DNA of 48,292 nt, filler included, from Jimgerdemannia flammicorona (GCA_003990765.1; 2 parts of 2 records of this genome joined end to end with filler, not necessarily neighbours in it); one strand, 5' to 3'. Shown: positions 8,836 through 44,216, counted from the first letter of the whole stretch. Program-made: numbers and translations. The notes: generated by a model from the sequence alone, not told the origin.

Positions 8836-9019
8836 TAGAAGATTCAAGAAGCAAAAATGGAGGTTCCCCTTCTGCAGTTCCTATAACTAATATCAGCTAA
8901 AGTCTGAAACAAACTGTTGAGAACCACCAGGTCTAGTACTGGCCAAGTTTCAATCCCACAGCAAGAACCAGTTTCTATCCCTATCCAAGCAGCTGAAAGA
9001 CATGTCAGCACCTACCTAC

Positions 9020-11067: not shown

Positions 11068-11479
11068 AAGAAGGAAGTACATCTCCTTCAAGTCAATCAC
11101 CTCAAATGTTCCCCAGCAAGTGTACCAGCAACTAGTCAGGCTGTACAAGAATCTTATCCTGGAGCCTAGAGAACAAACTACCTTCGAAATCTTTGCACCA
11201 CCCGATCCCAGAAACCTTTTCTTTGAACCTGAGGAAGATATCCCACACCTGGACATAGAGGAATATATATTCTCTGACAAGATAAATCCAGTACACTCCT
11301 GAGCAACCAACCAAAGTTGGGAGACCATCATCTTGCTGAAAGGAACCATCATAGGACATCTGGTGTCTTTTCTCAACTGAACTCATAGGGAAGTTTATGA
11401 ATTAAACCTATTGGAAAATAGCAAAAGGTCTCAGAAGAAAGGAAAGGCCCCTCTGCGACCCAGGAGATAGTGAAGCCTT

Positions 11480-14499: not shown

Positions 14500-15864
14500 T
14501 GTGACAAACCAGAATATACTACCTGAATTATAACTTAGCCAGATGATGTGAACACATAGCATAGTAACCAGCAATCATTGCTGTAGAAAGCTATATAAAT
14601 AGCCAAAGTACTAGATAAGATATACCTGTATAAGACTTACACACCTGTGTAAGATCTACACCTGTATAAGACCTATATACCTATGCAAGACCTACACACT
14701 TTCTATAAATAGTAATCTATAATTAGCAACATAGTAACCAGATAGCAACCAATTTGTATAAATTACCCCAGAGATAAGAGTGAATAAACCTCAGTCTGAA
14801 ATACAAACCAAAGAAGCCTCTAAAGATTGAGCATTGGTCCCCTTTCCACTCAGGTCCACTTTCTGATACAAAGCTTAAAGATTTTGCCACCAAGTTTGAG
14901 TGAAGAACTTTGCTGCCTTTGGAATTATTGGTATGCTTACCAGATAAGCCTGAAGAATCCAAGTTTCTGCTACCTAAGAGAAAGCTGCCTTGCTCAAGCC
15001 AGTTTCTGATGCAACTTTGCAGTGATCCATTTATGCAAACAAAGCCAGTCTTTGATGTAACTTTGCCAAGAAACCCTTTCCAAGAAGCTGCTAGCACATT
15101 TCCCAGTTGAAGCTACTGATTTAGGAAGAATCTGCATCATTGTATTTCTAGAAGAACCCGCTGATTCAGGAAGAATCTGCACCATCCAAGTTAATTCCCA
15201 GTTGAAGCCACTATTTTCAAGTTATCCACATTCCCAGTTGAAGCCATTGATTCAGAAAGAATTTGTGCCACCTGAGTTATTATTCCCAGAAGAGCTCAGT
15301 TTATGCCATCTGAGTCTCTATAACATCTGAGTCATTTGTTCCCAGTGAGCCTAAGTTATCGAGTTATCTGCCACCAGTACAATTCCCAGCGACATTCAAG
15401 AACCCTGCTGATTTAGGAGAATCTGTGCCAAATCAAGTTATCTACCAGATTACCAGATCACACCACATAAGGAATCCACTCACACTATACAAGATCATTA
15501 CCCAGAAATTGCATACTTTTGGAAATCATTATACTATACAGAGATCACCCATTACTCAAGAAGGAGAACTACTAAATTACTAGACTATCACATACAGAGA
15601 TTGTTGTGCTATATACGAAATTCTACCAATTCTCAGTTGACCCAAGAAGGAAAAGATATACAAATCATCACTATATCCAGAGAACAGTCCAAATAAGGAA
15701 ACTGCTTGCAGATATCCAGTTTTGACTATTATACCACTAAACACCAAGGATCTCAGAAATCTTAGAACATTTTATTGCTTTTTGACAAAGTAACTGGGGG
15801 CTCAAGCCAAACTACATCAATCCCCAATCTTGTAATTTGCCTCCATTGAGCCAGGCACATTACA
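14500..15864 (+). repeat. 3' LTR (1,365 bp)
   Basis: TGTGAC...ATTACA with canonical TG..CA ends; matches 5556-6940. Confidence 0.95.
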
Positions 15865-19232: not shown

Positions 19233-20738
19233 ATGATCGACAGTGGTCTTAGCCTTAAGGACGATATCGCCTCCATCTGGAAGGACCCAACCTACCACGA
19301 TGTGACCATTGTCTGCGCCGACGGTGTCGAGCTGAGTGCATGCCGTGCTCTACTGGCTTCAAGGTCTGCCCGATTTTGATTTTTTTTACATAGATTAGTT
19401 ATGTCGGTCGTTTTTCGTGATAAATTCCACACATCTGATTTCATATAATCTTTTAAAAGATGCCCAGTCTTCAAGGCGATGCTGTACGGCAACATGCGAG
19501 AAGGTTCTTCTAAACGCGTCGTCCTCAACGACATCACTTCCGCGGTGCTCAACATCGTCCTCAGCTTCATTCACACTGAAACCATCGACAACACAGTTGA
19601 AATTTCCATCGCGGTAGGAATATACCGCGCAGCAAGCTTCCTCCTACTTCCCAAGCTCATGAAGATGGTACTGGAGTGCGCGAACGACCTCGCTGATTTT
19701 GGTGTCGCCTCATCGCTTCTCAACGAAGCCGTCACCACTATCCCCTGGAGCGAAGCCAACAAGGACCTCTACGACGTGCTCCTCAACCCCTTCTGCGCTC
19801 ACAAGCTTGCCATCGGTGAGCTGTCAGACCTCTCCGAAGAGTCCCTCGAGCTGCTCCTCACAAAGGCAGCTACTCTTTCCACGCCAGAGCACAACCTATT
19901 GCTCTGTGTCGTCGACTGGGTCTGGAGACGCAACAAAAACACGCCGTCGCCTTCAGAGCGCCGTGCTGTTCTGCATGACATCAACGATATGGTTGCGGGG
20001 TGCGACGGAACTGTCCGACTTGGAAACGGCGCATCACGCGCTTTGCTGCTCAAAATGATGAACCATCTTGACCTCACGCTCGTCTGCCCACATCGACTCA
20101 AAGCCCTTACGAAGGCAGTTGACACGTTTACGGAAACCTCTCCACATTACATGGCGTTTTGCCATCACGCTTGCAAGAACACTGTATGCCCTACGGGTCA
20201 TCCGTCCGTAAGTCGCGGAGAGGCGAGTCACAATGTCAATCTCCAGTGGGATCCATTGAAAATCGGTTCTCATGTGATCGTTTCGGAAGATGGCCGGGTT
20301 GTGGAGCTTGCGTCGGGGGCCTCGGGCAAGACAGCACGGCTTTCCGTTCCCGGAACGAAGGTTCACAACAATCTATGCGAATGGGACATTGTCGTTGAAT
20401 CTGTTAGTAGTAACCAAGACCTCTGCGAGATTGGGCTCATAGGAGAGGAATTCGCAAGTTTTGAAAAGATTATGCAATTCCAGCCATCTGCGTGGATTTT
20501 CCAATCGTGGGATAACAACCAGCGTACGATGGTAGGAAGAAATGAACGCAATTACGGCAAAAAAATTGGAAATGGCGATGTCATTACCTTGCATTTAAAC
20601 CTAAATGATCATACCTGTGCCCTTTCGATCAACGGAATCAATTACGGGACAGCCTGGAGCAATCTCCCCGACAAGGTGTATCCTTCTGTCACTTTACGTG
20701 ATGGATGCAAGTATCGGATAAAAGATCATCGAGGTTGA
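19233..20738 (+). CDS. BTB/POZ plus C-terminal SPRY/B30.2 (concanavalin A-like) protein, 469 aa; exons 19233-19363 and 19460-20738
   Basis: Removing a GT..AG intron (19364-19459) gives 1,410 nt in frame: YHDVTIVCADGVELSACRALLASR|CPVFKAMLYGNMRE (BTB). The C-terminus has WDIVVE..IGL..GDVITLHLNLNDHTCALSINGINYGTAW..LP..VYPSV (SPRY-like). CpG content is normal. Confidence 0.92.
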
Positions 20739-21855: not shown

Positions 21856-23590
21856 TATTGAAATTACTAGTAAATATTATATAAGTTAGAAAATTAAAAA
21901 TATTATTACAGTATTATTACTTATACTTTAATTTTGTCATTTCTGATTACTTGTTATAAGAGATATTATATAATTATTATAAATATTATAATAGAGATTA
22001 TTTGGAATTTCTTTAACTTAATAGATATATTTATTAGAGTTATAGTAGACTTATATTATATATTATATTATTACTTAGTTGAGAATATAGAGTGAGAAGA
22101 AGAAGGAGTATTGTTTATTTATTCCAGATAGTATATATTTATATGTTGAGTAACATAGATCAAAAGAATGATATAATTCTAAGAATTATATATATAAGCC
22201 ATATTATCAAAATATCAAAATAATAAGAATTTCAATACTTCTGCTCAATGAGATAATATACAAGAATGCAATATAAGCAGAAATGTAATGTAACTAAATA
22301 ATAACTGCAAAATGACTGCAAATGTACTAAAAGAATACTAGTGAAAATAAAGGATATAAATAGATCTCAATAATAGAAAAACTCAAATATAGAAGAAGAA
22401 GAAAAAAAAAAAGTAAATAATAATACAATATAATACCTAAAGATAGAAATATAGAAATATGTATTATATTGTTTTTTTGCTTCCTTTTTGTTATTATAAA
22501 ATGTTCTGTAATTGTTATTTACTAGTATATATATAGTTTTATTACTGATATATAGTTTATTATAAGACTCATTTCTTTAGTATATTGCTTGAATTTAGAT
22601 CTCAGAAGAGCTTTAGTAAGTAAATCTATAATTATATACTCTATAGAAATTCTAAGTATATAGTTCTGATCTCTATATATTCTCTTATATAATAGTATTG
22701 TATACATATCAATATATTTAATTTTGCTATAATGAAAGAATTCTTTACCATAGTAATCATAGATTGATTATTTTAATAAATGAGTATAAAGTATTATTTC
22801 TGATTAAATCTGAGTTTCTTTAATAACTGATATAACCAAATAGCTCTCTTTATTGCTATAGATAATATTGTTACTAAGCTCTACTTATATGTTTGTCACA
22901 AAATAGCTTCTTTGCTATTTAATTAAAAGAAGTATCCAGTCATAGATTAGTAATCATCTATATCTCTAGTTCAATATGCATTACATATATATCAGATAGT
23001 TATATATCATTCTTATTTTAGTTATTATTATCATTACTCTCACTCAATCTACTAATGGTAAATATATAGTAACCATACCTTTAATATATCTGAGAGTTCT
23101 TTTAATAATACTTTAATACAAATTATTATAGTAGAATAAGTACTATACTATCTTATTTATAGTATATGAAATATTAGGTCTTATTTTAGTATAAGTTATA
23201 TAAGGGACCCAACTGCTTACTAATAGAGAATATTGATATAGTTTTTGTTGTTATTGGTCTTGGATATAGTATTGGGCTTTTTTAATTTTACTGAAGTTTT
23301 TATAAAAGTATTTACTGACTTATATTCATTTATATTGAATTATTTATATTAAAATATCTTAGTTATAGTAACTCAATATATAGTTATATAGCCTGACTAT
23401 ATCATTATATAAATATTATCAATATATATAAAAGTACATAAGTTATCAATAAACAATTACTGCTTCTTCTCTCTACTCTTCTCTAAGTATTCTATATATA
23501 AATATCACTGGCTATACTATCAGATTGATTGTAGAGATAGAAATTTTCATGCAAATTTTCTATTCTTTGATCTCTTTGAATTGAAAATTA
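21856..23590 (-). mobile_element. Ty1/Copia relic: RT-RNase H 3' part plus 3' LTR (21856-22237); upstream end approximate
   Basis: Minus strand gives YIDNI (YVDD-like, ~23415), AVGSLI, SKIKYIDI (RTKHIDI-like) and DLLTKAL. A decayed PPT TTGAGCAGAAG precedes the LTR, whose ends are perfect 10-bp inverted repeats TATTGAAATT/AATTTCAATA. Confidence 0.8.
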
Positions 23591-23599
23591 TGAGAGATA

Positions 23600-24098
23600 A
23601 CAATATAGTGATCCAGTGACTTCTGGATAGTAGTTGAGAAGAGGTTAGATATCATATAGAGAGGGGATAGTATGAGAGGTCAGTGGGAGGATTTGTGGGA
23701 TAGATTGGTGAGAGGGATTGGGAAGGAGTAGCTTACTTTAGGGTAGATACTGGCTATATAGGTGGGGTTGGCAGGGTACTGATTGTTTGTGTTTAAGGAT
23801 GGAAGACATCTGGGATTAGAGATACAACTATTGCAATGAGAAGGATTGATGAAGGATACTCTGATAGGTTGGTGGTATGGTTGGAGACTACAGAGTAGTT
23901 GATGGTATTATTTAGTAAAGAGAATATGTAGATAGAGTGGGAGGAGGATTGGGGTCATAGGAGACAGGGTGGTTTTTAAGTATGAAGGGGTGGAGGGGGG
24001 GAGGGGGTTCTACTATAAGGATTGGGTAGTGAGAGAAGATAATGTAAATTTATATATAGACTAGTAATAAATAGCAAAGTCCAAGTAACTATAAAAAA
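23600..24098 (+). mobile_element. Diverged 3' end of an L1/Tx1-like LINE (start approximate)
   Basis: Its tail TAGACTAGTAATAAA..AGTCCAAG..ACTATA(A)n resembles the LINE 3' ends at ~35580-35652 and ~42617-42670. Confidence 0.65.
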
Positions 24099-24198
24099 NN
24101 NNNNNNNNNNNNNNNNNNNNNNNNNNNNNNNNNNNNNNNNNNTTAATTAATTAANNNNNNNNNNNNNNNNNNNNNNNNNNNNNNNNNNNNNNNNNNNN
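24099..24198. other. Artificial gap/contig spacer
   Basis: 44 N + TTAATTAATTAA (stops in all six frames) + 44 N, exactly 100 nt. Confidence 0.95.
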
Positions 24199-24524
24199 GT
24201 TGATTTGAATCAAATCTGGATTTAATTTATCATATGACAATTTAATTCAAATCTTAAATCCAAAGCCATCTGAATCAACTTAGATTAATCTGAATCACTC
24301 CATCTGAATCACTCTATCTGAATCACCTATCTGAATTACTCTATTTAAACCATCCTATCTGAATTACTCAATCAGAATTACTCAATTCAAATCACTCAAT
24401 CCAAATCACTCAATCTAAATCACTTAATCCAAATTATTCAATTTAAATCCTTCAATCTGAATCTTCATCTAAATTTTCCATATGACTCATATGTCAGACA
24501 TATCTATATATATATGCAAATATA
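24199..24524 (+). repeat. Near-identical duplicate of the hAT left subterminal region (36025-36350)
   Basis: 326 bp colinear, with about five substitutions found by eye; contains ATCTGAATCACTC-like repeats. Confidence 0.9.
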
Positions 24525-25274
24525 ATATATATATATATTTTTTATTATAAAATGAGTAGATAATAGCAGAAGAGTTTAGAGCGAGATGTGATACTGTTAT
24601 GGCGGATATGAAGGTCAGTGGTAAGAGGTCAAGCAGTTATAAACGAAAAGCTTATGTGAATTTTCATGATGGAACAAAAAGTGGAATAAAGTGTTTTCCG
24701 AAGCAAGGTGCAATAGATCTGCAACCTGCCCTCAGTACTACAATATGTGGTGGTCTTTATTCAATTTGAGAAACAAAGTTTGGGTAAATAAAGACATGGA
24801 TCTAACTCCAGAATTCCGGAATCGGATAGGTGCATAAGTACCCGGACCTTGCCCCGATCCAAACAAAGGTCTGAATCGGGCTTTGTCGATCTACACATGT
24901 GATGGGCCATTAAAAACCCGATATAGTAACAATCAGGAAAAGGTACCGGTCACATGATCTAATGTTACATAATCAGTAAACAATGCCAAAAACAGAACTA
25001 GACCAATGATGCAACACGTGTTATCACATGATTGTCACTTATAGGTTTAAAAACCTAAAAATCGTTAGCACCCGAAGGTGCAGGCATCAGGCCTAGAGCC
25101 TTGCGACTGGAGCGGAGTAGAGCCTCAGTACTGGAGCGAGCGAAGCGAGCAGAGGTAGACAGGCATCATGGAGCATAGATATGCAGGCATTAGGCCTAGA
25201 GCCTCATGCCAGAGGTTGTCCGGCAATTTTTTGCATTTTTAAACATCGCACGGCACGTACAAGCGGTACAGTCT

Positions 25275-27281
25275 TCAAGGAGGACTTAGAGCAAAGCTGG
25301 TGTTTGAGACGGCATTAAGAACAGTAAAACCGTTCTTTCAGGCGATAATTGGTCATTGGGTGGTCGCAGGAAAACCAAAACGAAGCAAAGCGGTATATAG
25401 AGTCTTGTTGGGCTGTTGATGTAGCCATTGGGCTGTGTTGTATTAGATGACAAGCAACGGGAGAGGAAAAGCGGAGTGGGGGATGGGGGGGTGGGAAATA
25501 AGGGGAGGAGTGAGAAGTGAAGTTCAGACCTCAAGCCAATCAACCAAACTCAATTGAGCAGTTACAACATCAACAGAGTATCCTTTCCTGTGAACCAGGA
25601 ACTCAGCCAAAAACCGACACTCATCAAGCTAATCACGGCGAGAAGAGCAGAGTAGCGAAAGGCAGCAGGCCTTGTTCACAATGCATAGACAGAGTGTCTT
25701 TCTAGGATGATTGCTCAACCAGTCAACAAACTGAGTACTACGCGGAAACTTAGCAAAGTGGCCTGTGCAGAACGGTGCGACTCAGATTTTCAGGTCTAAG
25801 TAATGGCATAGTCCGGCAGACAAGACTTCCCAATCGATACGATGGTGTGGAGGGTACACGGCAGCAAAGATCAAGGCCAAGTCCATGATCGTGGGCACAA
25901 AGACAATAAGATCATCAATATATCGGCAGAACTTTAGCCTGGCAGCGATGGCTCAGCTGAGCAGATGATCGGGCACTTGCAAGGCACGCAACTCATGAGC
26001 AAAACCAATAAGATTGGCAAGATCCGGAGCACAGTTAGTGCCCATAGCAATACCAGTCACAGAGCAGAAGGAACCGATGGCAGATGTGAATGTTGTATGA
26101 GTCATGACTATGCGGACAAGGCCAAGAATGGCTTCAAGCGGCAAAGAGCCAGGAGGGAAGGCCACCATCGACAAAAAGGTGAGACAGTCGATGCACTCAT
26201 CTAATGTGATCCTGGTGTAGAAGGCGGCAAAATCTCCAGTAGCAACGTATAAACAATCTGACACATCAAGGTAATCCGATCGAACCAATTGAAGCAGTTC
26301 GAGCATATCATGCAGAGGTGAATAATGGGAATAACCCACATTATGGTACAGATGGGCCAACCACAGACGGAGAAAGTGAGATAGGAAACGCGAAATCTTG
26401 GTTATGGGAGAGTTAAATGTACCAATGATAGGGCGCCATGCCATGTGAGCCCCTTTGTGTACCTTGGGTAGAGCGTGAAACATGGGTAGCTTACAATCGA
26501 TGGGCTCCATGAGGTGTTTCCAAATCGGTATGCAATTATGATCGCCGATGCAGAACTCGAGTAGACCAAGAAGGTCTAGCCTCACTGATTCCTTAACGTT
26601 ATCAATCGTAGAGGGATCATTCACGTACGCAGGATCATAAAGGAGGGACCAAAGACCATCGAGATATAGAGCGCACGGTATAATGGCGAACCCCAGATTT
26701 TTGTCAGTAAGACAGACAGTAAAGTCATCATGAGTATGGACGCCTTTGAGAAGGCAGCGGAACTTCTTCGGTATAAGTGCACCGGACACATTCGTCATGG
26801 GTTGGACAGTTTGATTCAAAGTGGCACTCATATGAAACATAATTTGTATATTTTCCATACAGTGCGGCGGTCGCTATCTAGATGGCACCCAGGCAGAAAT
26901 CTCTGGGACATCGTCAGGATTACCCATAGAGGTCCAGAAGGTAGCAAGGTTGAGATGCCATTGGAATGACGACAATGAAATCGGGTCAATGGTACTATTC
27001 ATCAATGCCGACCCAGGGAGAACAAACTTAGGGCCAAAGTTCAGCATATATGTGAGCTCGGGGGTAAGCTAAGGTGGAGGTATATCGATAACAAAGCCCT
27101 CCTCGGTAAACATCCGAAACCGAGGGACAAAAAACTGACTTAATTGAGAACCGGGAAGAGAAGACACGAAGGCAAAATCCTCAATAGGTGTTGAGGCCAC
27201 TACCCTATGTGGAATGGAGACATCGGGGCCAAACCACGCTGCTGGGAAGTCATATAAGACTTCTGGGCTGGGGACCTCTAG
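25275..27281 (-). pseudogene. Penelope-like RT ORF2, left copy (in-frame stops, no frameshift seen)
   Basis: LNFGPKFV, TDKNLG, FHALPKVHK..WRPIIG, TGDFAAFYTRI, GIAMGTNCAPDLANL, RYIDD and HYLDL motifs. No GIY-YIG at either end. Confidence 0.9.
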
Positions 27282-28438
27282 TTTTTTGACGCTAGAGGGC
27301 AGGTATCGCTGGCATTATGCCAGACGACATGACATTTAGTGGCAGTACACTTGTTGTACTGTGGCACAAACGCCCTGGTGGCACTCTTAGATAAGCGGCT
27401 CAAAGTCGACGAGTGGCTGGTCCCGGTGGAAGCAGAGGAAACGGACGGGGAAGGTGAAGCCTTACGCGCTCGCTTGACCCCTTTTACAGAACCCTCCGTC
27501 ACAGCGGGAGCTAGGGAGCAAGGACTCTGGTGGGCCTTCGTAGGCACACCAAGGCGTCCAGAACAGCTACGGCAGTTCGGCGCAACAGAGGCCGAGGTCA
27601 CCTTCACCTTCTTCACCTTTCCCGCAGCCCCCGCAGGCACGGCGGTAGAGGGTAGGGGGGTGGGGACACTCTTTTTCGGTCGGGTGGAACCAGCGGCAGC
27701 AGAAGCAAACATGCATTTGGCACCCGGAGTAACAATCTCGGGGCACTTCCCAAGCTCCTCGACCATGGCTTTGCAGGCAGCGGTGGAAATCCCATCTTGT
27801 AGGGAGGAGGATGCAGGGGCTGTCAGGCGGACGGCAGCAGCAGCGGCTTTGGCAGCGGCAGCGGCGGCGAGATGGCGAGACTGACGCATGACAACGTCAA
27901 AACTATGGAACAAGAACAAGTTTGTCTTGGCCCGGTCAGTGGCAGCGAGGGTAGCGATATTCTTACTAACTCCTTGAGTGATATCAATAGATACACCAAA
28001 AAATTGATGGGTATCGGAAGAACCACCTATGGCCTTGTTGATTTTAGCATGCTGGTCCTTAGCATGCTGGGCGGTGGCATCTTGATCAGACACGGCAGCC
28101 TCAATCGCGGCAGTGGCGTGGCACTTAGCTTCTGCCGAAGCAGTAGTAAGGGCGGCAGCATGCTGTTCCTCAGGTAGGAGGGCAATGGTAGCGGCTACCT
28201 TCTTGGAAGGAGTAAACTTCCAATCGGCAACCTGGGCCCATAAGAACTCGGCGCAGCGTTCCTTCGCGGTGGCAACCTCAAGGGTGGAAAGCACTCTGGT
28301 GCAAGCAGCACGGAAGTAAGTAGGGACCTTGGCAGACGCGGCAGCAATATAGGCTGCAAGGTTGTCGAACTCTGCCAAATCAGCGAAGGAAGCTTTGGAG
28401 ATGGCAGCATCGCCATCTACATTCATATTATCTATCAT
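27278..28438 (-). CDS. ORF1 of the Penelope-like element, 386 aa, uninterrupted; Ala-rich N-half, Cys/His motifs in the C-half; function unknown
   Basis: Open 386-codon ORF with a homologue in the right arm (29655-30815). It ends at the A AAA AAC TAG slippery site overlapping the RT frame. Confidence 0.75.
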   Translation of the reverse strand: MIDNMNVDGDAAISKASFADLAEFDNLAAYIAAASAKVPTYFRAACTRVLSTLEVATAKERCAEFLWAQVADWKFTPSKKVAATIALLPEEQHAAALTTASAEAKCHATAAIEAAVSDQDATAQHAKDQHAKINKAIGGSSDTHQFFGVSIDITQGVSKNIATLAATDRAKTNLFLFHSFDVVMRQSRHLAAAAAAKAAAAAVRLTAPASSSLQDGISTAACKAMVEELGKCPEIVTPGAKCMFASAAAGSTRPKKSVPTPLPSTAVPAGAAGKVKKVKVTSASVAPNCRSCSGRLGVPTKAHQSPCSLAPAVTEGSVKGVKRARKASPSPSVSSASTGTSHSSTLSRLSKSATRAFVPQYNKCTATKCHVVWHNASDTCPLASKN

Positions 28439-28946
28439 GTTGTGTATTATAAAACGAGTAGATAATAGCGGAAGAGTTTAGAGCGAGATGTGATACTGTT
28501 ATGGTAGATACGAAGGTCGGCGGTAAGAGATCAAGTAGTTATAAACAAAAAGCTTATGTGAATTTTCACGATGGAACAAAAAGTGGAATAAAGTATTTTC
28601 CAAAGCAAGGTACAATAGATCTGCAACCTGCCCTCAGTACCGCAATATGTGGTAGTCTTTATTCAATTTGAGAAACAAAGTTCAGGTAAACAAAGATATG
28701 GATCTAACCCCAGAATTCCAGAATTGGATAGGTGCATAAGTACCCAGACCTTGCCCCGATCCAAACAAAGATCTGAATCAGGCTTCGTCAATCTACACAC
28801 ATGACGGGCCATTAAAAACCCGATATAATAACAATCGGGAAAAGGTACCGGTCACATGATCTAATGTTACACAATCAGTAAACAATGCCAAAAACGGAAC
28901 TAGACCAATGATGCAACACGTGTTGTCACATGATTATCACTTATAG

Positions 28947-29146
28947 GTTTAAAAACGCGAAAAATCGCTGGACAACCTCTGATGTGAGGCTCTAGGCCTG
29001 ACGCCTGCGTACCTATACTCTGTGATGCCTGTCTACCTCTGCTCACTTCGCTTGCTCCGGTGCCGAGGCTCTACTCTGCTCTGGTCATGAGGCTCTAGGC
29101 CTGACGCCTGTGCCTTCGGGTGCCGATGATTTTTAGGTTTTTAAAC
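28947..29146 (+). repeat. 200-bp IR-bounded module T at the palindrome centre (other copies 25045-25244 minus, 32849-33048 plus)
   Basis: Bounded by GTTTAAAAACGCGAAAAATCG / TGATTTTTAGGTTTTTAAAC. Contains the internal direct repeat GAGGCTCTAGGCCTGACGCCTG twice and a C(TTCG)G hairpin. Confidence 0.9.
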
Positions 29147-29654
29147 CTATAAGTGACAATCATGTGACAACATATGTTACATCATTGGTCTAGTTCTGTT
29201 TTTGGCATTGTTTACTGATTGTGTAACATTAGATCATGTGACCAGTACCTTTTCCCGATTGTTACTATATCGGGTTTTTAATGGCCCATCATGTGTGTAG
29301 ATCAACGAAGCCCGATTCAGACCTTTGTTTGGATCGGGGCAAGGTCTGGGTACTTATGCACCTATCCGATTCTGGAATTCTGGGGTTAGATCCATGTCTT
29401 TGTTTATCCGAACTTTGTTTCTCAAATTGAATAAAGACCACCACATATTGCAGTGCTGAGAGCGGGTTGCAGATCTATTGCACCTTACTTCAGAAAATAC
29501 TTTATTCCGCTTTTTGTTCCGTCATGAAAATTCACATAAGCTTTTCGTTTATAACTGCTTGACCTCTTACCACTGATCTTCGTATCCACTGTAACAGTAT
29601 CACATCTCGCTCTAAACTCTTCCACTATTATCTACTCGTTTTATAATATACAAC

Positions 29655-30815
29655 ATGACAGATAATATGAATGTAGATGGTGATGCTGCCGTCCCCAAAG
29701 CTTCCTTCACCGATTTGGCGGAGTTCGACAACCTTGCAGCCTATGTTGCTGCCACGTCTGCCGAGGTCCCCGCTTACTTCCATACTGCTTGTACTGGAGT
29801 GCTTTCCGCCCTTGAGGTCACCGCCATGAAGGAATGCCGTGCTGAGTTCTTATGGGCCCAGGTTGCCGATTGGAAGTTTACTTCTTCTAAGAAGATAGCC
29901 ACTGCCATTGCCCTCCTACCTGAGGAACAGCATGCCGCCACCCTTACTACTGCTTTGGCAGAAGCTAAGTGTCACGCCACTGCCGCGATCGAGGCTGCCG
30001 TGTCTGATCAAGATGCCGCCGCCCAACATGCTAAGGACCAGCATGCTAAAATCGACAAGGCCATGGGTGGTTCTTCCGATGCCTATCAATTTTTTGGTGT
30101 ATCTGTTGATATCACTCAAGGGGTTAGCAAGAATATCGCTACCCTCACTGCCACCGACCAGGCCAAGACAAACTTGTTCTTGTTCTGTGGTTTTGACGTT
30201 ATCGTGCATCAGTCTTGCCATCTTGCCACCGTCGCTGCTGCCAAAGCCGCTGCTGCTGCCGTCCGCCCGACAGCCCCTGCATCCTCCTCCCTGTAAGATG
30301 GGATTTCTGCCACTGCCTACAAAGCTGTAGTGGAGGAGCTTGGGAAGTGCCCCGAGATTGTTACTCTGGGTGCCAAATGCACATTTGCTTCTGCTGCCAC
30401 TGGTTCCGTCCAACCAAAAAAGAGTGTCCCCACCCCCCTATCCTCTACCGCCGCGTCTGCGGGGGCTGCGGGAAAGGTGAAGGAGGTGAAGGTGACCTCG
30501 GTCTCTGTTGCACCGAACTGCCGTAGCTGTTCTGGACGCCTTAGTGTGCCTACAAAGGCCCACCAGGGTCCTTGCCCCCTAGCCCCCGCTGTGACGGAGG
30601 GTTCTGTAAAAGGGGTCAAGCGAGCATGTAAGGCTTTGCCTTCCCTGTCCATTTCCTCTGCTTCCACCGGGACCAGCCACTCGTCGACTTCGAGCTGCTC
30701 GTCTAAGAGTGCTGCCAGGGCGTTTGTGCCATAGTGCAACAAGTGTACTGCCACTAAACGTCATGTCATCTGGCATAATGCTGGCGATACCTGCCCTCTA
30801 GCATCAAAAAACTAG
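29655..30815 (+). pseudogene. ORF1, right copy (two premature stops)
   Basis: Same frame and length as the left ORF1. Stops TAA (30294) and TAG (30732) correspond to Gln codons in the left copy. Confidence 0.85.
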
Positions 30816-30852
30816 AGGTCCCCAGCCCGGAAGTCTTATATGACTTCCCGGC
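30806..30852 (+). promoter_or_regulatory. Putative -1 programmed ribosomal frameshift signal
   Basis: A AAA AAC (30806-30812) is in ORF1 phase immediately before TAG. ORF2 is in the -1 frame. A stem GGAAGTC/GACTTCC (30829-30835/30842-30848) follows. The heptamer is conserved in the left arm. Confidence 0.75.
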
Positions 30853-32818
30853 AGCGTGGTTTGGCCCCGATGTCCCCATTCCATATGGAGTAGTGGCCTC
30901 AATACCTATTGAGGATTTTGCCTTCATGTCTTCTCTTCCCGGTTCTCGATTAAGTCAGTTTTTCGTCCCTTGGTTTTGGATGTTTACCGAGGAGGGCTTT
31001 GTTACTGATATATCTCTGCCTTGGCTTACCCCCGAGCTCACGTATATGCTGAACTTTGGCCCTAAGTTTGTTCTCCCCGGGTCGGCATCGATAAATAGTA
31101 CCATTGACCCGATTTCGTTGTCATCGTTCCAACGGCGTCTCAACCTTGCTACCTTCTGGACCTCTATGGGTAATCCTGACGACGTCCCAGAGATCTCCGC
31201 CTGGGTGCCATCTAGATGGTGACCACTGCACTATATGGAAAATATGCAAATTATGCTCTATATGAGTGCCGCTTTGAATCAAGCTGTCTGACCCACGATG
31301 AATGTGTCTGGCACGCTTGTACCGAAGAAGTTCCACTGCCTTCTCAAAGGCGTCCATACTCATGATGACTTTACTGTCTGTCTTACCAACAAAAATCTGG
31401 GGTTCACTGTTATACCATGCGCTCTATATCTCGATGGTCTTCGGTCCCTCCTTCATGATCCTGCGTACATGAATGATCCCTCTATGATTGATAACGTTAA
31501 GGAATCAGTGAGGCTAGACCTTCTTGGTCTACTCGAGTTCTGCATCAGTGATCATAATTGCATGCCGATTTGGGAACACCTCATGGAGCCCATCGATTGT
31601 AAGCTACCTGTGTTTCACGCTCTGCCCAAGGTACACAAAGGGGCTCGTGTGGCATAGCGCCCTATCATTGGTACGTTTAACTCTCCCATGACCGAGATTT
31701 CGCGTTTCCTATCTCGCTTTCTCCATCTGTGGTCGGCCCATCTGTGCCGTAATGTGGGTTATTCCCGTTATTCACCTCTACATGATATGCTCGAACTGCT
31801 TCAATTGGTTCGATCAGATTACCTTGATGTGTCAGATTATTTATATGTTGCTACTGGAGATTTCGCCACCTTCTACACCAGGATCACATTAGATGAGTGC
31901 ATCGACTGCCTCACCTTTTTGTTGACGGTGGCCTTCCCCCCTGGCTCTTTGCCACTTGAAGCTGTTCTCGGCCTTGTTTGCATAGTCATGACTCATACAA
32001 CGTTCACATCCGCCATCGGTTCCTTCTGCTCTGTGACTGGTATTGCTATGGGCACTAACTGTGCTCTGGATCTTGCCAATCTTGTTGGTTTTACTCATGA
32101 GTTGCATACCTTGCAAGCACCCGATCATCTGCTCAGCCAAGCCGTCGCTGCTGGGCTAAAGTTCTACTGGTATATTAACGATCTTATTGTCTTTGTGCCC
32201 ATGATCATGGACTTGGCCTCGATCTTTGCTGCTGTGTACCCTCCGCACCATCGTATTGATTGGGAAGTCTTGTCTGCTGGACCGTGCCATTACTTAGACC
32301 TGGAAATCCGAGTTGCACCATTCCGCACAGGCCGCTTTACTAAGTTCCCGCGTAGTACTCAGTTTGTTAACTGGTTGAGCAATCATCCTAGAAAGATACT
32401 CCGTCTATGAATTGTGAACGAGGCCCGCCACCTTTCACTACTCTGCTCTTCTCGCCGTGATTGGCTTGATGAGTGTCGGTTTTTGGCTGAGTTCCTGGTT
32501 CACAGGAAAGGATATCCTGTTGATGTTGTAACCACTCAATTGAGTTTGGTTGATTGGCTTGAGGTCCGAACTTCACTTCTCACCCCTTCCCTTATTTCCT
32601 ACCCTCCCATCCCCCACTCCGCTTTTCCTCCCCCGTTGCTTGTCGTCCAATACGACATGGCCCGATGGCTACATCAACAGCCCGACAAGACTCTACATAC
32701 CACTTTGCTTCGTTTTGGTTTTCCTGCGACCGCCCAATGACCAATCATCGCCCGGAAGAATGGTTTTACCATTCTTAACGCTGTCTTAAACACCAGCTTC
32801 ACTCTAAGTCCTCCTTGA
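30812..32818 (+). pseudogene. Penelope-like RT ORF2, right copy (~668 codons, in-frame stops only)
   Basis: Track ORFs at 30893, 31298, 31688 and 32414 all share one frame and carry the same PLE RT motifs as the left copy. The C-terminal thumb reads HYLDLEI..KFPRSTQFV.WLSNHP. Confidence 0.9.
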
Positions 32819-33565
32819 AGGCCGCACCGCTTGTACGTGCCGTGCGATATTTAAAAATATGAAAAATCACCGGACAATCTCCGGCGCGAGGCTCTAGGCC
32901 TGATGCCTGCGTACCTATGCTCCGTGACACCTGTCTACCTCCACTCGCTTTGCTCACTCTGGTGCCGAGGCTCTACTCTGCTCCGGTCATGAGGCTCTAG
33001 GCCTGATGCCTGCGCCTTCGGGTGCCGATGATTTTTAGGTTTTTAAACCTATAAGTGACAATCACATGACAACACGTGTTGCGTCATTGGTCTAGTTCTG
33101 TTTTTGGCATTGTTTACTGATTGTGTAACATTAGATCATGTGACTGGTACCTTTTCCCGATTATTACTATATTGGGTTTTTAATGGCCTATCATGTGTGT
33201 AGATCGACAAAGCCCGATTCAGACCTTTGTTTGGATCGGGGCAAGGTCCGGGTACTTATGCACCTATCCGATTCCGGAATTCTGGGGTTAGATCTGTGTC
33301 TTTGTTTACCCGAACTTTGTTTCTCAAATTGAATAAAGACCACCACATATTGCGGTGCTGAGGGCAGGTTGCAGATCTATTGCACCTTGCTTCGGAAAAC
33401 ACTTTATTCCGCTTTTTGTTCCATTATGAAAATTTACATAAGCTTTTCGTTTATAACTGCTTGACCTCTTACCACTGACCTTCGTATCTGCCGTAACAGT
33501 ATCACATCTCGCTCTAAACTCTTCCACTATTATCTACTCATTTTATAATAAAAAAAAAAAAAAAA

Positions 33566-35612
33566 GGCTACAGAAGATAGCCCAGCAAATTATAGGTGGT
33601 GAGCAGAGGGGCTTCATAGGGGGTCAGCTTATTAGAGATAGCACAGCCTAGGTACATGGAGTTATTGAAGATGCTTGAGCCTGTGGACTGAATGGGCATC
33701 TTGTCTTCTTGGACCAGGAGAAGGCTTATGACTGGGTGCAGTGAGTCTGGCTGATGAAAGTATTAGATAGAATTGGGGTTCTGGTCCCATTTTGGTCAGT
33801 GATGGTCAGCCTACTGGAAAGAAGTAGGGCTGCACTTGTATGTAATGAGTATAGAGGGGTAGCATTCTCTCTGGATAGGGGAGTACCCCAGGGGGACCCA
33901 CTGTCTCCCATTTTGTATGCTCTTTCCTTAGAACCTCTAATGGATAGGATCTAGCAGAGGATAGTGGGGCTCTCTATCTATGGAGTTGGCTGGAAAGTTG
34001 GAGCCTTTGCAGATGACATAGTAGTTGGCTTGAGAGTAACTGCGGATGTCAAAGAGCTCAAGAAGACAGTGGAGTAGTATGAGGAGAACTCTGGGGCAAA
34101 GCTGAATTGGCACAAGTGCAAAACAATGGTGCTGGGCAATGGCCTAGTAGGTGGTGAAGTTATTGGAACAATTGTCCTCACTGGAGAGGCAGTGCAGTAC
34201 TTGAGCATCTATTTGTCAGTCTATGGGTCTGTTCTGCCCAGGCTGTGGTAGGAGCAGAGGATTGGAATTTGGGAGGAGGACCTGTGGGGTTGGGGGGGAA
34301 GACACTTCTCTCTGGTAGGAAGGATCTCGATTTTGAATGTATACTGGCTGCCAAAGCTGTGGTATTTGGCTTATCATCTGGACTTCCCAGCCTAGGTAGT
34401 GAAGTAATTGGTGAAGGTGGCCAAGAGATGGATTTGGGCTGGCAGATGGAGTCAGATTGGTTGGGAGACTTTGTCCCTACTAGTAGTGAGAGGTGGTCTT
34501 GGGCTGGTGGACTTCCCCAAAAGACTACACTACTTGAGAGCATGGTGGCTTAGGAGGGTGGTGGAGTTGCATGGAGGGGGCTGGGTTCCCCTGCTGCAGA
34601 AGGTATGGGAGAGGCAGACATCACCAAGAGGCTTGACTGGTGATCTTCTTTCATTAGTTGGGCTTCAGAATACTGTGCAACTGAGATATAAAGGCTTCTG
34701 GTGGAGGATAGCTGAGGGGACACACCACATTGATATTCGCTGGTGAGGGGATGAGGAGGAGAGGGCTTGGGGCCCGGCAATATAGAGATGGGATGGCATT
34801 CTTCTGGAAGGCATGTCTTTACTTGAGTTCAACATTGGTGATAGAATCAAATGCCAAAGGAGACCAGGCCAGGATCTGTGGTCTAGTGGTTAGCAAGGAG
34901 TTGGAATTGGTAAGGAGTGGGACTGACAGAGAGTTTGGACCTGGAGTGCCACAGTGAAAAATTGGATACTGCTGAAGTACTAGGTAGTCTGGTAGTGCAT
35001 ACTGAGGAGGAATATGATGCTTAACTTCTGCTCAGGTCACCTTGTTGTAGGGGGCTGCTTTGACTGCAAGGAGTACCATAATGTAGGGCAGGAAGGGGGA
35101 TTTATGCAGATACCAGAACATTGGCTAGGGGAGTGTGAGGTATTGGGAGACTTTTGGCAGGCCATTGGGGCCTGCTTGGGAGTAAGGCATAGGAGTGATG
35201 ATGTATGGGGGAGGTGGGAGGATCTGAGGGATTGATTGATAGGAGGGGTAGGGGAGGAGTAGATTACTCTAGACTGAGCATTGGCTATTTGGGTTGGGCT
35301 GGCCAGTCACTGGCTATTTGTATTTGAGGAGGAGGGACGACAGAGCTTGAGGAGCTGGCTATCATGGTGGCAGTACCTTATGGAGGATACCTTGACAGGC
35401 TGGTGGCTTGGTTGGGGGCTGCAGGGGGATTGGAGGCACCACTTGGTGGTGAAAATCTATATTCAGAGTGGTGGGAGAGTTGGAGTTGTTGGTAAGAAGG
35501 TGGTCTTTATACATGAAAAGGTGGGAAGGGACCCCCTGATGGGGATCGGATAGTGGGAGGTGATATTGTATACTTATTTATAGACTGGTAATAAAGACAG
35601 AGTCCAAGGGAC

Positions 35613-35652
<40 letters not shown>
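33566..35652 (+). mobile_element. 5'-truncated L1/Tx1-like non-LTR retrotransposon with poly(A)
   Basis: EQRGFI, VFLDQEKAYD, RGVPQGDPLSPILY, AFADD, GGLGL..RAWWLRR and a C-terminal Cys/His remnant. Poly(A) runs ~35616-35653. CTACAGAAG occurs on both sides as a possible TSD/microhomology. Confidence 0.88.
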
Positions 35653-35655
<3 letters not shown>

Positions 35656-36749
35656 ACAGAAGCCCAATCCACCATCACTCTCAAAAGTAATAAGGTAGAA
35701 GAGTTCTGGAATCCCATCCTTGAGAACAATCCTGATCAATTCTTACAAGGATTGATCTTAATATTCTAAGATCCCAGTATCTAAGTCAGACCCCCTCAAG
35801 ATTCCACCTTTATTTCCTACTTTGTAGAGAAGAACCTTATAGATTAAAGAGCCTCTGATCTTCTTACTTCTGTTACTAAACATGATGATATCATCTTACT
35901 AATTAGTGATATGTGCAAAACATGCAAAATGTATGATATATATGAAATATACAAAATGGACAAAATATTTACTGATCTCATTTCCTTCAAAGATATCCTG
36001 ACCTCTAGCTAGTACTCTGAATAAGTTGATTTGAATCAAATCTGGATTTAATTTATCATATGACAATTTAATTCAAATCTTAAATCCAAAGCCATCTGAA
36101 TCAACTTAGATTAATCTGAATCACTCCATCTGAATCACTCTATCTGAATCATCTATCTGAATTACTCCATTTAAACCATCCTATCTGAATTACTCAATCT
36201 GAATTACTCAATTCAAATCACTCAATTCAAATCACTCAATCTAAATCACTTAATCCAAATTATTCAATTTAAATCCTTCAATCTGAATCTTCATCTAAAT
36301 TTTCCATATGACTCATATATCAGACATATCTATATATATATGCAAATATACATATATATATACAAATATACAAACACACATATTGACAAATCAGTCTTCA
36401 ACAGTTTATAGTACTGATGATACTTCAAGTCAAATATTCTCAATAGTTCCACACCTTCTATATAATACTCACTCCAAAATCTAGTAATATTGTACTAAGA
36501 CAGGAGATGATATTATTTGTAACTATTGTAGATAAATTTTTTTTTTAAAAAAAGAAGATGTACCTATGATATAACTAACACTTTGTTTGATATACACATA
36601 ATACTGTTTCATCTACCTCCTAAACTATACAACCAAAAGTTCAAAATACTTAGTAGTTTAACTTTAAATATACATATATTAATATATAAAAGACAAATAC
36701 TCTGATAAAATCAAAAAGAACACAGAGACAAATAAAATCAATATCTAGG

Positions 36750-39574: not shown

Positions 39575-42538
39575 CAAAGTCTACTATAGATTTAGGTCCT
39601 ATTACTGGTTCAGATCCTATAGGTACCCTGGCTCTACACCATAATACTATACCAGTGGCACTATAAGAGCAGAGCCAAGGAGCTGGTAGGGCCTGACATA
39701 ACAGCTATACTAGTACTATAGAAAGAGATACCTAGCTGCCAGCCTAACTCCTCAAAAAAGACTAACCAATCTGCATAAAATGACAACTAAACCCTTATAA
39801 AAGATTATCTAACCCTCACAAAAACTACTCTACTGGCCTTGATGAGCCTATCATCTATTGTGAGTGTAATGACTATTGTATCTGAGCTCTTCTTAAAGGT
39901 GATGATATCATAGTAGTCATGTGATTAGAATAGAACAGCTATGTTGGCTACAAACAGAACCTCAAAACTATAGGTGAGGTCATACTAGACTCTGCTACTG
40001 TCCTCCTAAGTTGGGTCTCTCCTTTCTAGAATATAAAATATTACCAAGGTGATATTGTTGTCTATATGTATGGACAGAGAAATATTATATTTAATATATC
40101 CTAATATGATTTAAGTATATAGTTGGATGAACCCTTAGTCCAGGACTTCATACTATCAGAAAGTGCTAGAGAATATCTATTCTTCATTAAGCCCCAGGAG
40201 TCCCAGCTTGAAAACCTGCCCAAAATGGATAGTATCCAGTTAGTTCTTTTTATATACAAGAGACAAAAACTTTGGGCTGCACCCAAAAAGTAGAGCTCCT
40301 TACCTCATATGGCATACTAAATTGTACCAAAAATGTACATACAGCTGTGCTAAGATCACTATCAAGCTGGTTTGCTATATACTCCACCAACCTACTCAAA
40401 GAACCCCAGATCATAGCTACCATTACTATATAGGCTATATTGTGCTCATATATAGTTTACTCTTTAACAGTACTTTTAAAGTTCTGATAGGGATACAGAA
40501 TCTTATACATCTCTGAAATTATATCAAAAAGAGTATATTGGTGAGAGATTGATTATCTGGAGAGAAAATAAAATAAAAAAAAAGAGAGATAAGTATAGAG
40601 GATTTCAGAACTTCAGAACTCCAGAACCCACTCTTTATCAGTATTGTGGTATATTCAATTCTCATCCAAACCCCCCCCCCCCTTTCTTGCTTTTTTCACC
40701 TCTTTTTTCCTACTATCCAGTATTTGATATAATCCTTATAAACCTCATTGATGTAGTAGTAAAGCTCATCACTATAGAGATTTCTCACCACTATTGCAAC
40801 CACCTCTCTATAATTATTAATAATGATATAGTTCTTTTCATTGTTGAATATTCAGGCTGGTCAATAGACTCCTTGGTTAAGAATAATTGGCTCTAATTTA
40901 AATGTAGACCCCCAAGTCTTGATAGTGATACTGGTACTACTCATGCTGAACATCTTGCCCTCAAACTTCTCTATTTGATCAGATGCTAGATATAGTCAAA
41001 CTTAGGTAACTTTGAATTCTCTCTTTTAATGAAACTGAGCTCTAATCTAAGGGACCAAGATAAGTATGTGGATGGGTTGTATATGGGTGGAATATATATG
41101 GACAAGTTTTATATAAACAGGTTTTGTGTAGACAGAGTTTCATACAGATGGATTGTATGTAGATAAATTATGTACAGATGAGTTATATGTAGATAGATTA
41201 CATGCAGACAGATTATATATAGGTATTATGTAGGTATTTTTAGGAAAGATCACATAAAAATGAAGTTAAATAAAACATAGAGATGGATATTTCAGAAAAA
41301 GAGTATGAGTGAGTAAGTTGTATACTGATAAGTTGTATGAGTTATATAAGATTGCTCATGAAGACTTACTTCTATTTCTTTTGAGATCTCTACTATACAA
41401 TACATTGACTCAATAGCTCAGCTACTAAAGGTATGCCCCATAATGTCTATCAGCCTTTCTTCATCTTGACCAGATATTGTAAATAAAGTTAGCAGATCTT
41501 GCTATAGAGCTATAGATCTTAAGAAAAGCATGAGATAAATTGGATTATACTGGGGGAAATTAAAAAAATAAACATAAGTAAACAAATGATAGCAGAATGA
41601 GTAACCTATATCTACTATCAGCTACTTCAAAAAGGCTATTACATATATAGCTATAAGGTCTGTGAATTCTGAGATCCAAAGGACTATTGTAAGTTATTGC
41701 CAGAATTCTCTTGTATCCCACTATCACCACTATCATTGCTACCACTATTGCCTCTTTAACTCTTAATGAGCAGCTTGTGTGCTGTCTATATGAGAAAGAA
41801 TTTAACATTATCAGCAGAGAGTATGTTTCTACCTAAAATACTCCCTCTTTTGACAATTATTATAAGATAAAAAAATGAGTAACCTGGACTAATATATGAT
41901 TAAGAACTACTGTTTTGTTTAAAAGAACAAAGAAAAAGAACAAAGAAAGAACAAAAGAAGAGAGGAAATAAAAGAAAAGAAAGAATAAAAGAAAGAATGA
42001 TATTATCAAAGTATAGTAGGAAAAAAAAAATAAAGTGAAAAATAAACAAAAGAAAGAGTGATGTAATTAAATATTTCATGTGATCAGTCTAGACAGATCA
42101 ATCTGGATTAATCCAGATTAGATCATAAGACCAATCTAAGTTGATTCAAATCTATTATATAATAAATCTAAATTGAATCTCATCCAGATCAATTTCATCT
42201 ATTCAGAGTATTATTATTTAGTAAGAGGCTCTAATAGGATATAGTTCTTACTCTTAAGAGAGATCTAGTAGTAAGTCTTAGTAACTATCTTTATCTCTAA
42301 TTTATTAACTTCAGAATAGAAGAGGTTCTAGATATCTGAGGTTTGTATAAAATTGAGATTAAAGATTATAAGAAGTATATTGAAAGATTTGATAGATTTT
42401 CTTGATAAGTCTCTATTTATATCTATTCAGATTAGTTCAGGTGAAAATCTGATCCATAGTAAGGTTTTGATAGTATTGACAGATATAGTAACTGATTTTA
42501 TACTTATATATACTAGATTTCTAAGTAGCTAATAGATT

Positions 42539-42670
42539 GGTCTTTATATGTGAAGAGGTAGGGAGAGGCCCCCCAATGGGGATCGGATAGTGGGTGGTGA
42601 TATTGTATACTTATTCATAGACTGGTAATAAAGACGGAGTCCAAGAGACTATAAAAAAAAAAAAAAAAAA
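42539..42670 (+). mobile_element. Extremely 5'-truncated copy (~130 bp) of the same LINE family
   Basis: Matches the last ~115 nt of 33566-35652 plus poly(A). Perfect 16-bp TSD AAGTAGCTAATAGATT at 42523-42538 and 42671-42686. Confidence 0.9.
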
Positions 42671-44216
42671 AAGTAGCTAATAGATTAATAGATCCTTTTA
42701 ATAAGTTTTCAGTAGTTGAGGATAAAGTATCTTAGGTTCTGACTAGTGAGATTAAGAGTCTTAGAGCAAAAGTTCTTTCCTTTCATTACAATTATAATAT
42801 GATCAAAGAGATAGTTTATAAGACTTTAGAGGGATTAGCTTTAGCAAAATGTTTAGTAATTATAGTGAGAAGACATCTTTGTGATTTTCTGAAGTAGGAA
42901 TAATGTTCAATGCTCTTATCTTTTGTCTGGTATTTATATCTTCTTATCATAGTTACTTTATGCTGATTATAACTACTTTCTATTTTAATATATTTCTAGT
43001 AACTATTTTTTTATTCTATTATAAGATAAATAATCTACTGGTATAAGCTAAATATATACTAGTTATGTAGGAATTGATATAATAATACTGAGTTAAAAAT
43101 ATCTTATTTTTGACTTTAGATGAGAAGTTAGTCACTCTGTTAAGGCATTGGCTTTTAGACTATAGACTGAGAGTTTAAATCTAGCCTTATAACTTTTATA
43201 GTTATTGATATATAAGTACTATATATAGTTAGTATAGCTGTCACATATATATTACTTTGGCTTTATATAATCCTCTATAGTTATTAGAGATTTAGGAAAG
43301 TTCTTCAATAGAATAATCTTTTATTTTCTTTAGTAATAATTATATTAAATAGCTAGATATTATAGGTACTGATCAAATTTCTCAATATATTGAGTAAGGT
43401 TTGACTACCTCATTTAGGATGAGGGTCTTAGTATTAGTTTGACTAGCTGAGAGAAGGTTTGAACTCCACTAGTGACTTCTCTTCAGGGAGATTATTAGTA
43501 CTATATCTTTAGTAGATCTTTTGATAGAATATTCTCTAATTAGAAGCTATTACTATTAATAATTTAAGAGTAACAACTCACAGATAGTCAATATATTTCT
43601 CTTTTGCTAGCTATAATATTTGATTATTCCTTTTGAGTTATTCTATATATTGCTTCTTATCAGTATTTATTATTGATATATTCTAGATAATTATAAGTTT
43701 ATTTTTTACTTAATCTCTCATTTCTATTTTAAACTTTAGAGAGGGGTTTTTTTTATTTTTTTAAAAAAAAGAACAGATTCTCATCTACTTGATCACTTAC
43801 TTTGCAGATAAGCTCTAAACTGAATTATAAAGAATGATGAAATAGTAAAGAAGAGATAGCTAAGAGTAGTAAGATATAAAGATTGGTAAAATAGTAAAAA
43901 ATAATAAGAGAGAGATGATAAAGAATAATAAGAGTAAGATGACAAAAAATATATAATGAGGGTGAGATGGTAAAAGATAATGAAGGCAAAGAGTAATGAG
44001 AGTAAAGAATAATAAAATGATAAAGAATAATAAGTATAAAATATAATAAGATATTAAAAGATACAAAAAGATAATAAAGCCACAGCTCATATTGTAACAG
44101 CTTTATAATGACTTTATAGTATACTATAAATTATTCATTAGATATTTATTTATAGAAATATTCATATAAAAATCAATGCTCGATTTTTCTAGTGATTGTT
44201 AGTAATAAACTATATC

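Follow-up and report, generated by a model that had tools for sequence, protein, structure and literature searches.

Head-to-head Penelope-like elements with two poly(A) tails and no detectable endonuclease domain in Jimgerdemannia flammicorona

Introduction

Among Penelope-like elements (PLEs), inverted insertions have been described for those that carry a GIY-YIG endonuclease (EN+). The relevant sections of Craig et al. 2021 (PMC8557442) give as the typical EN+ structure pseudo-long terminal repeats (pseudo-LTRs) together with an inverted, 5′-truncated copy that adjoins the upstream pseudo-LTR, and they deem the cleavage properties of the GIY-YIG endonuclease a very likely cause of these tandem and inverted pseudo-LTRs. 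Inverted junctions of EN+ Penelope elements show palindromes or overlaps (15 bp in Pen2a_Av of Adineta vaga, with 18- and 38-bp palindromes elsewhere), which the sections cited here of Arkhipova et al. 2013 (PMC3846280) read as self-priming; the same sections report a bias of EN+ PLEs for microsatellite targets and state that the endonuclease-deficient (EN−) PLEs of fungi and protists do not have the pseudo-LTR/inverted organization. Coprina-1_Alen of Ascochyta lentis is described in the pertinent part of PMC13159263 as a telomeric element that lies between telomeric repeats and has two open reading frames (ORFs), with terminal repeats in direct orientation that reach 422 bp. Here we analyze a stretch of 48,292 nucleotides (nt), filler included, from the Jimgerdemannia flammicorona assembly GCA_003990765.1 (two parts joined end to end; hereafter, the window), in which two copies of a PLE without an endonuclease lie head to head.

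We compared the locus with the EN+ clades Penelope/Poseidon, Neptune, Nematis, Naiad, Chlamys and Hydra, whose GIY-YIG domain is C- or N-terminal. As far as the cited sections portray Pen2a_Av and the clades Penelope/Poseidon, Neptune, Naiad and Chlamys, they share with the present element direct pseudo-LTRs, a head-to-head inverted copy and a short overlap or palindrome at the junction, as well as insertion into simple repeats, the left junction here lying in (TA)n. Unlike them, the present element has no detected GIY-YIG domain, two ORFs instead of one and A-tails at both ends, and what lies inverted to it is a complete second element, pseudo-LTR included, instead of the truncated stub found in them; no short target duplication, 30-40-bp tail or hammerhead was seen here. 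The EN− elements Coprina and Athena, in the cited portions of their descriptions, resemble it in lacking an endonuclease, in having two ORFs with DKN, reverse transcriptase (RT) and thumb in ORF2, and in their terminal direct repeats, and one relative of the present element is fungal. In those same portions they occupy chromosome ends, are capped by telomeric repeats, carry hammerheads and are arranged head to tail, whereas the element described here is arranged head to head, ends in poly(A), has genes on both sides and shows neither telomeric repeats nor a detectable hammerhead. A third comparison is with endonuclease-independent L1 insertion and twin priming, where, according to the relevant part of a recent preprint (bioRxiv 10.1101/2024.12.14.628481), the RT uses existing DNA 3′ ends, inner junctions show microhomology, and inversions arise by two-sided priming or fold-back. 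In L1 twin priming, one RNA is primed at its tail and at an internal site and yields a 5′-inverted, truncated insertion with one poly(A), in contrast to the two full-length arms and two outward tails found here.

A preliminary description of this DNA had treated the head-to-head arrangement as unprecedented. That view does not hold, as inverted 5′ copies with junction palindromes are already described for EN+ PLEs in the cited sections of PMC8557442 and PMC3846280. The head-to-head pseudo-LTR form with a junction palindrome does not amount to a novel route of integration; the novelty lies in meeting it in an element that has no endonuclease, and with two poly(A) tails on full-length arms. Our search of main texts in an open-access library turned up no account of an EN− PLE that forms a head-to-head dimer.

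Anatomy of the dimer

A repeat search of the window recovered an inverted repeat with arms at 24538-28963 and 29130-33555, each 4,426 nt long, 91% complementary and 166 nt apart; comparison of arm with arm by blastn gave 91.24% over 4,429 columns. Once the A/T runs and 7-10 imperfect nt on the inner side are set aside, the arms occupy 24544-28956 and 29137-33549 around a centre of 180 nt (28957-29136), in agreement with the two 4,413-bp mirror arms and 180-bp spacer given previously. In both arms the ORFs point outward from the centre, which places the copies head to head. The parts of the dimer are listed below by their positions in the window.

24538-24543, minus strand: A6 tail of the left copy (T6 on the plus strand)
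24544-28956, minus strand: left arm, decayed, one 3,902-nt unit plus a 5′ pseudo-LTR
24544-25244, minus strand: 3′ terminal repeat of the left copy (copy A)
25356-27314, minus strand: left ORF2 (RT) with DKN, LPKVHK, YIDD and thumb; 25632-27314 translated, low end placed by mirror mapping from the right arm
27278-28438, minus strand: left ORF1, 386 amino acids, intact, Ala-rich
28440-28956, minus strand: 5′ pseudo-LTR of the left copy (copy B)
28947-28956, no strand assigned: 10-nt junction microhomology GTTTAAAAAC, pairing with 29137-29146
28947-29656, plus strand: 5′ pseudo-LTR of the right copy (copy C, 710 nt)
28947-33549, plus strand: right arm, the 710-nt pseudo-LTR plus one 3,902-nt unit
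28957-29136, plus strand: 180-nt centre, pseudo-LTR sequence (approximately unit positions 3203-3382) in sense to the right copy, forming the loop of the stem-loop that the element carries
29655-30815, plus strand: right ORF1, interrupted by stops, end placed by mirror mapping from the left arm
30779-32737, plus strand: right ORF2 (RT), 653 codons with 4 in-frame stops, terminal stop common to the left arm
32846-33549, plus strand: 3′ terminal repeat of the right copy (copy D)
33550-33565, plus strand: A16 tail of the right copy

At their outer ends, the two arms terminate with the same nucleotide, ...TTTTATAAT, and are followed on the element strand by six A residues on the left and sixteen on the right. 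In the two internal copies, TTTTATAAT is followed by 7 nt and then by the ATG of ORF1, and no A-run is present at the boundary between pseudo-LTR and body. Both the common end point, 7 nt short of the ORF1 ATG position, and the two tails had been noted before, and both are borne out. The missing A-run at the internal boundary implies that the template was a terminally redundant RNA longer than one unit and not two tailed RNAs joined together. The identical end nucleotide, the unequal A-runs and the unrelated flanks together indicate that both outer junctions are junctions between an RNA 3′ end and DNA. The primed strand is the plus strand at the left junction and the minus strand at the right junction, a geometry that is that of the two 3′ ends of one break.

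The centre and the junction stem

Each arm contains direct repeats 3,902 nt apart, which are 524 nt long in one arm and 710 nt in the other. At the 5′ ends, the left pseudo-LTR measures about 0.5 kb and the right one 710 nt, and the 180-nt centre is not foreign DNA; it represents the extra 186 nt by which the right pseudo-LTR exceeds the left. Alignment of the four repeat copies further showed that the element contains an inverted repeat of its own, with limbs near unit positions ~3193 and ~3372-3392 that are 19-20 nt long and imperfect but include a 10-nt exact core, and that every pseudo-LTR copy carries it. The head-to-head junction falls exactly on this core: the 10 nt at 28947-28956, which are common to both arms, pair with GTTTTTAAAC at 29137-29146. 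In the predicted fold of copy D, which stands alone at a 3′ end, the same long-range stem is formed (minimum free energy -72.4 kcal/mol, z = -2.65), whereas it is absent from the minimum free energy structure of the more mutated copy A. The palindrome as originally reported stands as a structure, but the 9% difference between the arms, the pseudo-LTRs and the element-internal inverted repeat at the centre had been missed.

Divergence and age of the arms

The ungapped comparison of the arms over 4,426 nt yielded 389 mismatches, 386 of them transitions and only three transversions, with 203 changes private to the left arm and 183 private to the right. At CpG sites where at least one arm retains CG, the arms read CG/CG at 94 sites, CG/TG at 92, CG/CA at 82 and CG/TA at 7; at 38 additional sites, one arm has TG and the other CA. 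These counts fit a history in which each arm independently lost approximately half of its CpGs. Counted directly, 151 transitions have a CpA context, but this figure is inflated, as 76 of these positions are halves of the 38 CpG sites mutated in both arms, and after their reassignment the 386 transitions comprise about 264 derived from CpG, about 75 from CpA, 38 from CpC and 9 from CpT. The nearly pure transitions, most of them at CpG, indicate that the arms were almost identical when they were made and have decayed independently since. The bias itself, with CpG accounting for roughly two thirds and CpA, CpC and CpT following in that order, points to repeat-targeted cytosine methylation or a process like repeat-induced point mutation.

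The CpG observed/expected ratio, computed in 2-kb bins across the whole window, separates most repeat DNA (0.00-0.06) from the PLE arms (0.63-0.75) and from two gene-bearing stretches (1.03-1.16), which indicates that this genome erodes CpG in repeats and that the dimer is younger than the neighbouring repeats. Among the four pseudo-LTR copies, pairwise differences range from 5.4 to 8.3% and include a single transversion. The pairs within an arm (7.9% in the left, 6.2% in the right; 41 and 32 differences over 517 columns) are no closer than the pairs between arms, and this star-like divergence indicates that the two arms are of one age.

Identity of the element

The element is a PLE without an endonuclease, with two ORFs and an end in poly(A) instead of telomeric repeats. 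ORF2 contains DKN, LPKVHK...RPII, the motif-A aspartate, GIAMGTN and YIDD; we take DKN, LPKVHK and YIDD to be Penelope-like motifs (compare PMC13159263). Four in-frame stops occur among the 561 codons read of the left ORF2. With stops written as X, only the left copy matched RVT_1 (E=3.2e-5), at 24.2 bits and thus under the cut-off of 29.6. The full-library search returned 1,873 relatives at E<=1e-3, only four of them at E<=1e-30, the best being 43% identical. Protein-cluster neighbours of an ORF from the window are PLE-like and come from rotifers and cnidarians, with DUF8422 in 15-74% of cluster members. ORF1 matched no Pfam family, had no homologue in a word-indexed search and showed no similarity to ORF1 of a tandemly arranged metagenome relative (L015, see below). 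The C-terminus of the left ORF1 (27281-27380) has the spacing C-x4-C-x4-H-x5-C, which could be a degenerate zinc knuckle, with nothing significant in Pfam.

Some of the relatives combine RT and GIY-YIG domains (P0006, P0045 and P0069). Among the 65 best full-length matches scanned, GIY-YIG was found in two, none of them among the best 28, and P0006, from the first search, is a further carrier. In the three sense frames of the two arms, a profile search for GIY-YIG found none at E<=10, which bears out the earlier impression that the domain is missing. The stop of ORF2 is the same codon in both arms and lies 108 nt before the terminal repeat; in alignment, the C-terminus coincides with those of P0004 and P0014, and no coding space is left for a GIY-YIG domain. 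In a tree of 73 rows, built from a quick search, rooted at the midpoint, containing several long branches and including no named Coprina or Athena references, both arms fell with P0004, P0016, P0014 and P0015 in a clade of six rows without GIY-YIG (support 99 in the Shimodaira–Hasegawa-like approximate likelihood ratio test), and all three GIY-YIG rows fell in a separate clade of nine. P0016, a public protein of the glomeromycotan fungus Racocetra fulgida, is the sole named relative. The relatives, the motifs and the grouping with Penelope-like RTs in this tree support the Penelope-like assignment that had been made from the sequence alone.

Rfam searches of 23500-34500 (E<=1) and 28400-29700 (E<=10) found no hammerhead, although about half of the CpGs have been lost and a decayed motif could escape such a search. 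A hammerhead-like CTGATG...GAGGC in the centre was rejected as a candidate, the other three copies showing that it originated from CCGGCG by transitions. Telomeric repeats of the TTAGGG type (TTAGGGTTAGGG, at most two mismatches) matched the whole window once against 3.84 matches expected, and far from the element. Together with the genes on both sides, this result agrees with the non-telomeric setting proposed in the preliminary description. We conclude that the element is endonuclease-less and non-telomeric and that it most likely entered through a break.

Distant relatives in metagenomes

Distant PLE-like RTs without an endonuclease, 23-31% identical to the query, are present on 22 metagenome contigs (L001-L022). 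Both ends of the contig overlap exactly and directly in 12 of the 22, one has 99% direct repeats one unit apart, and one, L015, spans 3.5 perfect tandem units of 3,196 nt over its 11,146 nt (1-11146); the remaining eight have no such direct repetition. Each unit of L015 encodes a 273-amino-acid ORF and a 659-amino-acid RT ORF without GIY-YIG. None of the 22 contigs contains an inverted repeat of at least 40 nt, and head-to-tail seems to be the common form among these metagenome relatives, which assemble as apparent circles or head-to-tail arrays of ~3.0-3.6 kb. In the four metagenome loci scanned with Rfam, no family reached its gathering score.

Origin of the dimer

The dimer was probably formed in a single endonuclease-independent event at a chromosomal break, if the two versions of such an event, one with one complementary DNA (cDNA) and one with two, are taken together. 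We tentatively prefer the version in which one break-primed cDNA switches strands at the element's own stem. From the anatomy given above, we infer the following order of synthesis. Reverse transcription would have started on the poly(A) tail of a single RNA, with the minus-strand 3′ end at 33566 as primer, and the cDNA would have extended through the unit into the 5′ pseudo-LTR. Once the outer limb (unit position ~3193) had been copied, the cDNA 3′ end, GTTTTTAAAC, could have snapped back on the complement of the inner limb 180 nt behind, whereupon the polymerase would have copied its own cDNA back out to the tail. The free end would then have been joined to the other break end at the (TA)n run and filled in, and the arms would have decayed independently by C-to-T changes, mainly at CpG.

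Such a fold-back requires only one priming event. It is supported by the outer ends that stop at one nucleotide, by the exact 10-nt microhomology inside the element's inverted repeat, by the mere three transversions between the arms, by the star-like repeat copies and by the missing GIY-YIG domain, and the self-priming reading of EN+ junction palindromes in PMC3846280 also speaks for it. The loop has the orientation of the right arm, which is also the arm with the longer tail; a cDNA primed on the right explains this orientation, and, given that a fold-back copy cannot exceed the tail of its template in length, the left tail is expected to be no longer than the right one, as is the case. The anatomy thus fits the endonuclease-free origin, by fold-back or from two RNAs, that had been suggested at the outset, whereas the accompanying idea of a novel integration route has to be given up, the head-to-head form being a known PLE hallmark.

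Several points weigh against this fold-back scenario. The evidence comes from one decayed locus of the family. Tail lengths can drift by slippage, which makes A6 < A16 weak evidence, and the scenario needs an additional step, not observed, in which the second break end is joined to the folded strand. A simple model does not predict that the left flank should recur, at 98% identity, 2.5 kb beyond the right side of the element, and on the left a scaffold gap at a distance of 345 nt conceals the context. A weak objection, given that assemblies from short reads are prone to breakage where copies meet in inverted orientation, comes from the distant metagenome relatives: all 22 are without inverted repeats, and 14 repeat more than one unit directly.

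It is possible, but in our judgement unlikely, that two RNAs took part in the single event, each 3′ end of one break priming its own cDNA on poly(A), with the 3′ end of the right cDNA then annealing to the left cDNA through the same 10 nt before fill-in and ligation. The geometry of a two-ended break, with a plus-strand 3′ end on the left, a minus-strand 3′ end on the right and a T-run after each on the primed strand, is what two such cDNAs would leave, and they account for the microhomology and the equal age of the copies as well as the fold-back does, with independent tail lengths to be expected. They do, however, need two rare endonuclease-free primings at one break, and do not predict the longer tail on the loop-carrying arm; moreover, intramolecular snap-back at the same stem should be kinetically favoured.

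Improbable, in our view, is an origin in two separate insertions, in which a resident copy was later hit by a second one whose cDNA was joined by microhomology at a break exactly at the resident 5′ end. Endonuclease-less elements depend on breaks, the structured AT-rich stem could be fragile, and decay cannot date the arms finely apart, given 41 versus 32 within-arm differences. The break would nevertheless have had to coincide exactly with the resident 5′ boundary, and divergence within arms is indistinguishable from divergence between arms, where transversions number only three.

An assembly artefact, whether from a chimeric fold-back read or from two dispersed copies wrongly joined, is very improbable. 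The scaffold gap close to the palindrome would suit such an artefact, and tandem and inverted PLE structures are known to trouble assemblies, as the relevant section of PMC8557442 reports. Against it stand the 389 differences between the arms, with their private mutations on either side and different stop codons; moreover, CG is kept by one arm at 174 CpG sites, as opposed to the TG/CA pattern at only 38, and 10 exact bases, all that the stems have in common, would not suffice to mislead an assembler. We also considered, and rejected, methylation-related miscalls of a fold-back read as the source of the arm differences, since strand-specific miscalls should mostly produce TG/CA pairs.

In yeast and in cancer, large palindromes are known to be seeded by short inverted repeats. 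Even so, we give hardly any credence to a palindrome made at the DNA level after normal insertion of a monomer, through a break near a short inverted repeat and then fold-back priming or replication template switching, for although fold-back junctions at L1-induced break ends are described in the pertinent part of bioRxiv 10.1101/2024.12.14.628481, such a process should carry flank along, whereas here the arms stop at the poly(A) site, the tails are unequal, and the flanks are unrelated, the left one not being an inverted copy of the right.

The proposition that, in this lineage of EN− fungal PLEs, the head-to-head dimer is the regular integration product at internal chromosomal breaks, formed by RT-driven fold-back at the conserved pseudo-LTR stem-loop, is one that we hold to be doubtful. 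If true, it would make the inverted pseudo-LTR architecture a property of the RT and its RNA and not of the GIY-YIG endonuclease to which the literature credits it. An EN− element that has the EN+ architecture, is non-telomeric and carries poly(A) tails would weigh against the statements quoted above from sections of PMC8557442 and PMC3846280, would point to the RT and an RNA or cDNA stem-loop as the cause of the architecture, and would show that EN− PLEs settle away from telomeres via breaks. With a single case in hand, this is a lead and not a result.

Flanks and surroundings

The sequences on either side of the dimer comprise the following features.

24099-24198, no strand assigned: gap or linker N44-TTAATTAATTAA-N44, 345 nt left of the left arm, beginning inside the poly(A) of an old LINE fragment (long interspersed nuclear element, 23683-24098)
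24199-24535, plus strand: left flank F1′, AT-rich, 337 nt, a 98% direct duplicate of 36025-36362, ending in (TA)n at the left-tail junction
33566-35662, plus strand: right flank, GG and then an older 5′-truncated poly(A) LINE (33577-35653, A38) with a 9-nt target duplication CTACAGAAG at 33568-33576 and 35654-35662
36025-36362, plus strand: F1, the second copy of the left flank, whose (TA)n runs on into unrelated sequence

F1 is separated from the right end of the dimer by 2.5 kb and has the same orientation as F1′. Over 24199-24524, the two differ at five positions (1.5%), as compared with a non-CpG divergence of ~2.8% between the arms, so the flank duplication could be as old as the dimer. 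One repair event may have given rise to both, with the flank repeated either as a long target duplication or through templated synthesis. We rejected a target duplication of 2.8 kb, in which the left side would repeat 33566-36362, because similarity in a purine/pyrimidine diagonal scan was limited to the pair 23683-24098 and 35214-35621, which differ by many transversions and are thus old, separate LINE copies. No short target duplication flanking the dimer was seen. The linker at 24099-24198 resembles an inserted contig linker and not a sized gap, and it conceals what precedes the left-flank duplicate.

The LINE in the right flank has a CpG ratio of 0.06, which indicates that it is older than the dimer. 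It belongs to one poly(A) LINE family with three 5′-truncated copies in the window (33577-35653, 23683-24098 and 42538-42672), which are old as judged from the many transversions between them. Target duplications are clear in two of these copies, the 9-nt CTACAGAAG listed above and one of ~14 nt around 42522/42674.

The genes on either side of the dimer are a BTB/SPRY ORF at 19449-20735 and a CobW-like gene at 46619-47624. A decayed RT on the plus strand at 11638-12327 matches RVT_1 in two adjacent ORFs (E=7e-15 and 4e-7); it sits in a long CpG-free repeat region with 1.4-kb direct repeats (5558-6938 and 14502-15862) and may belong to an LTR-type element.

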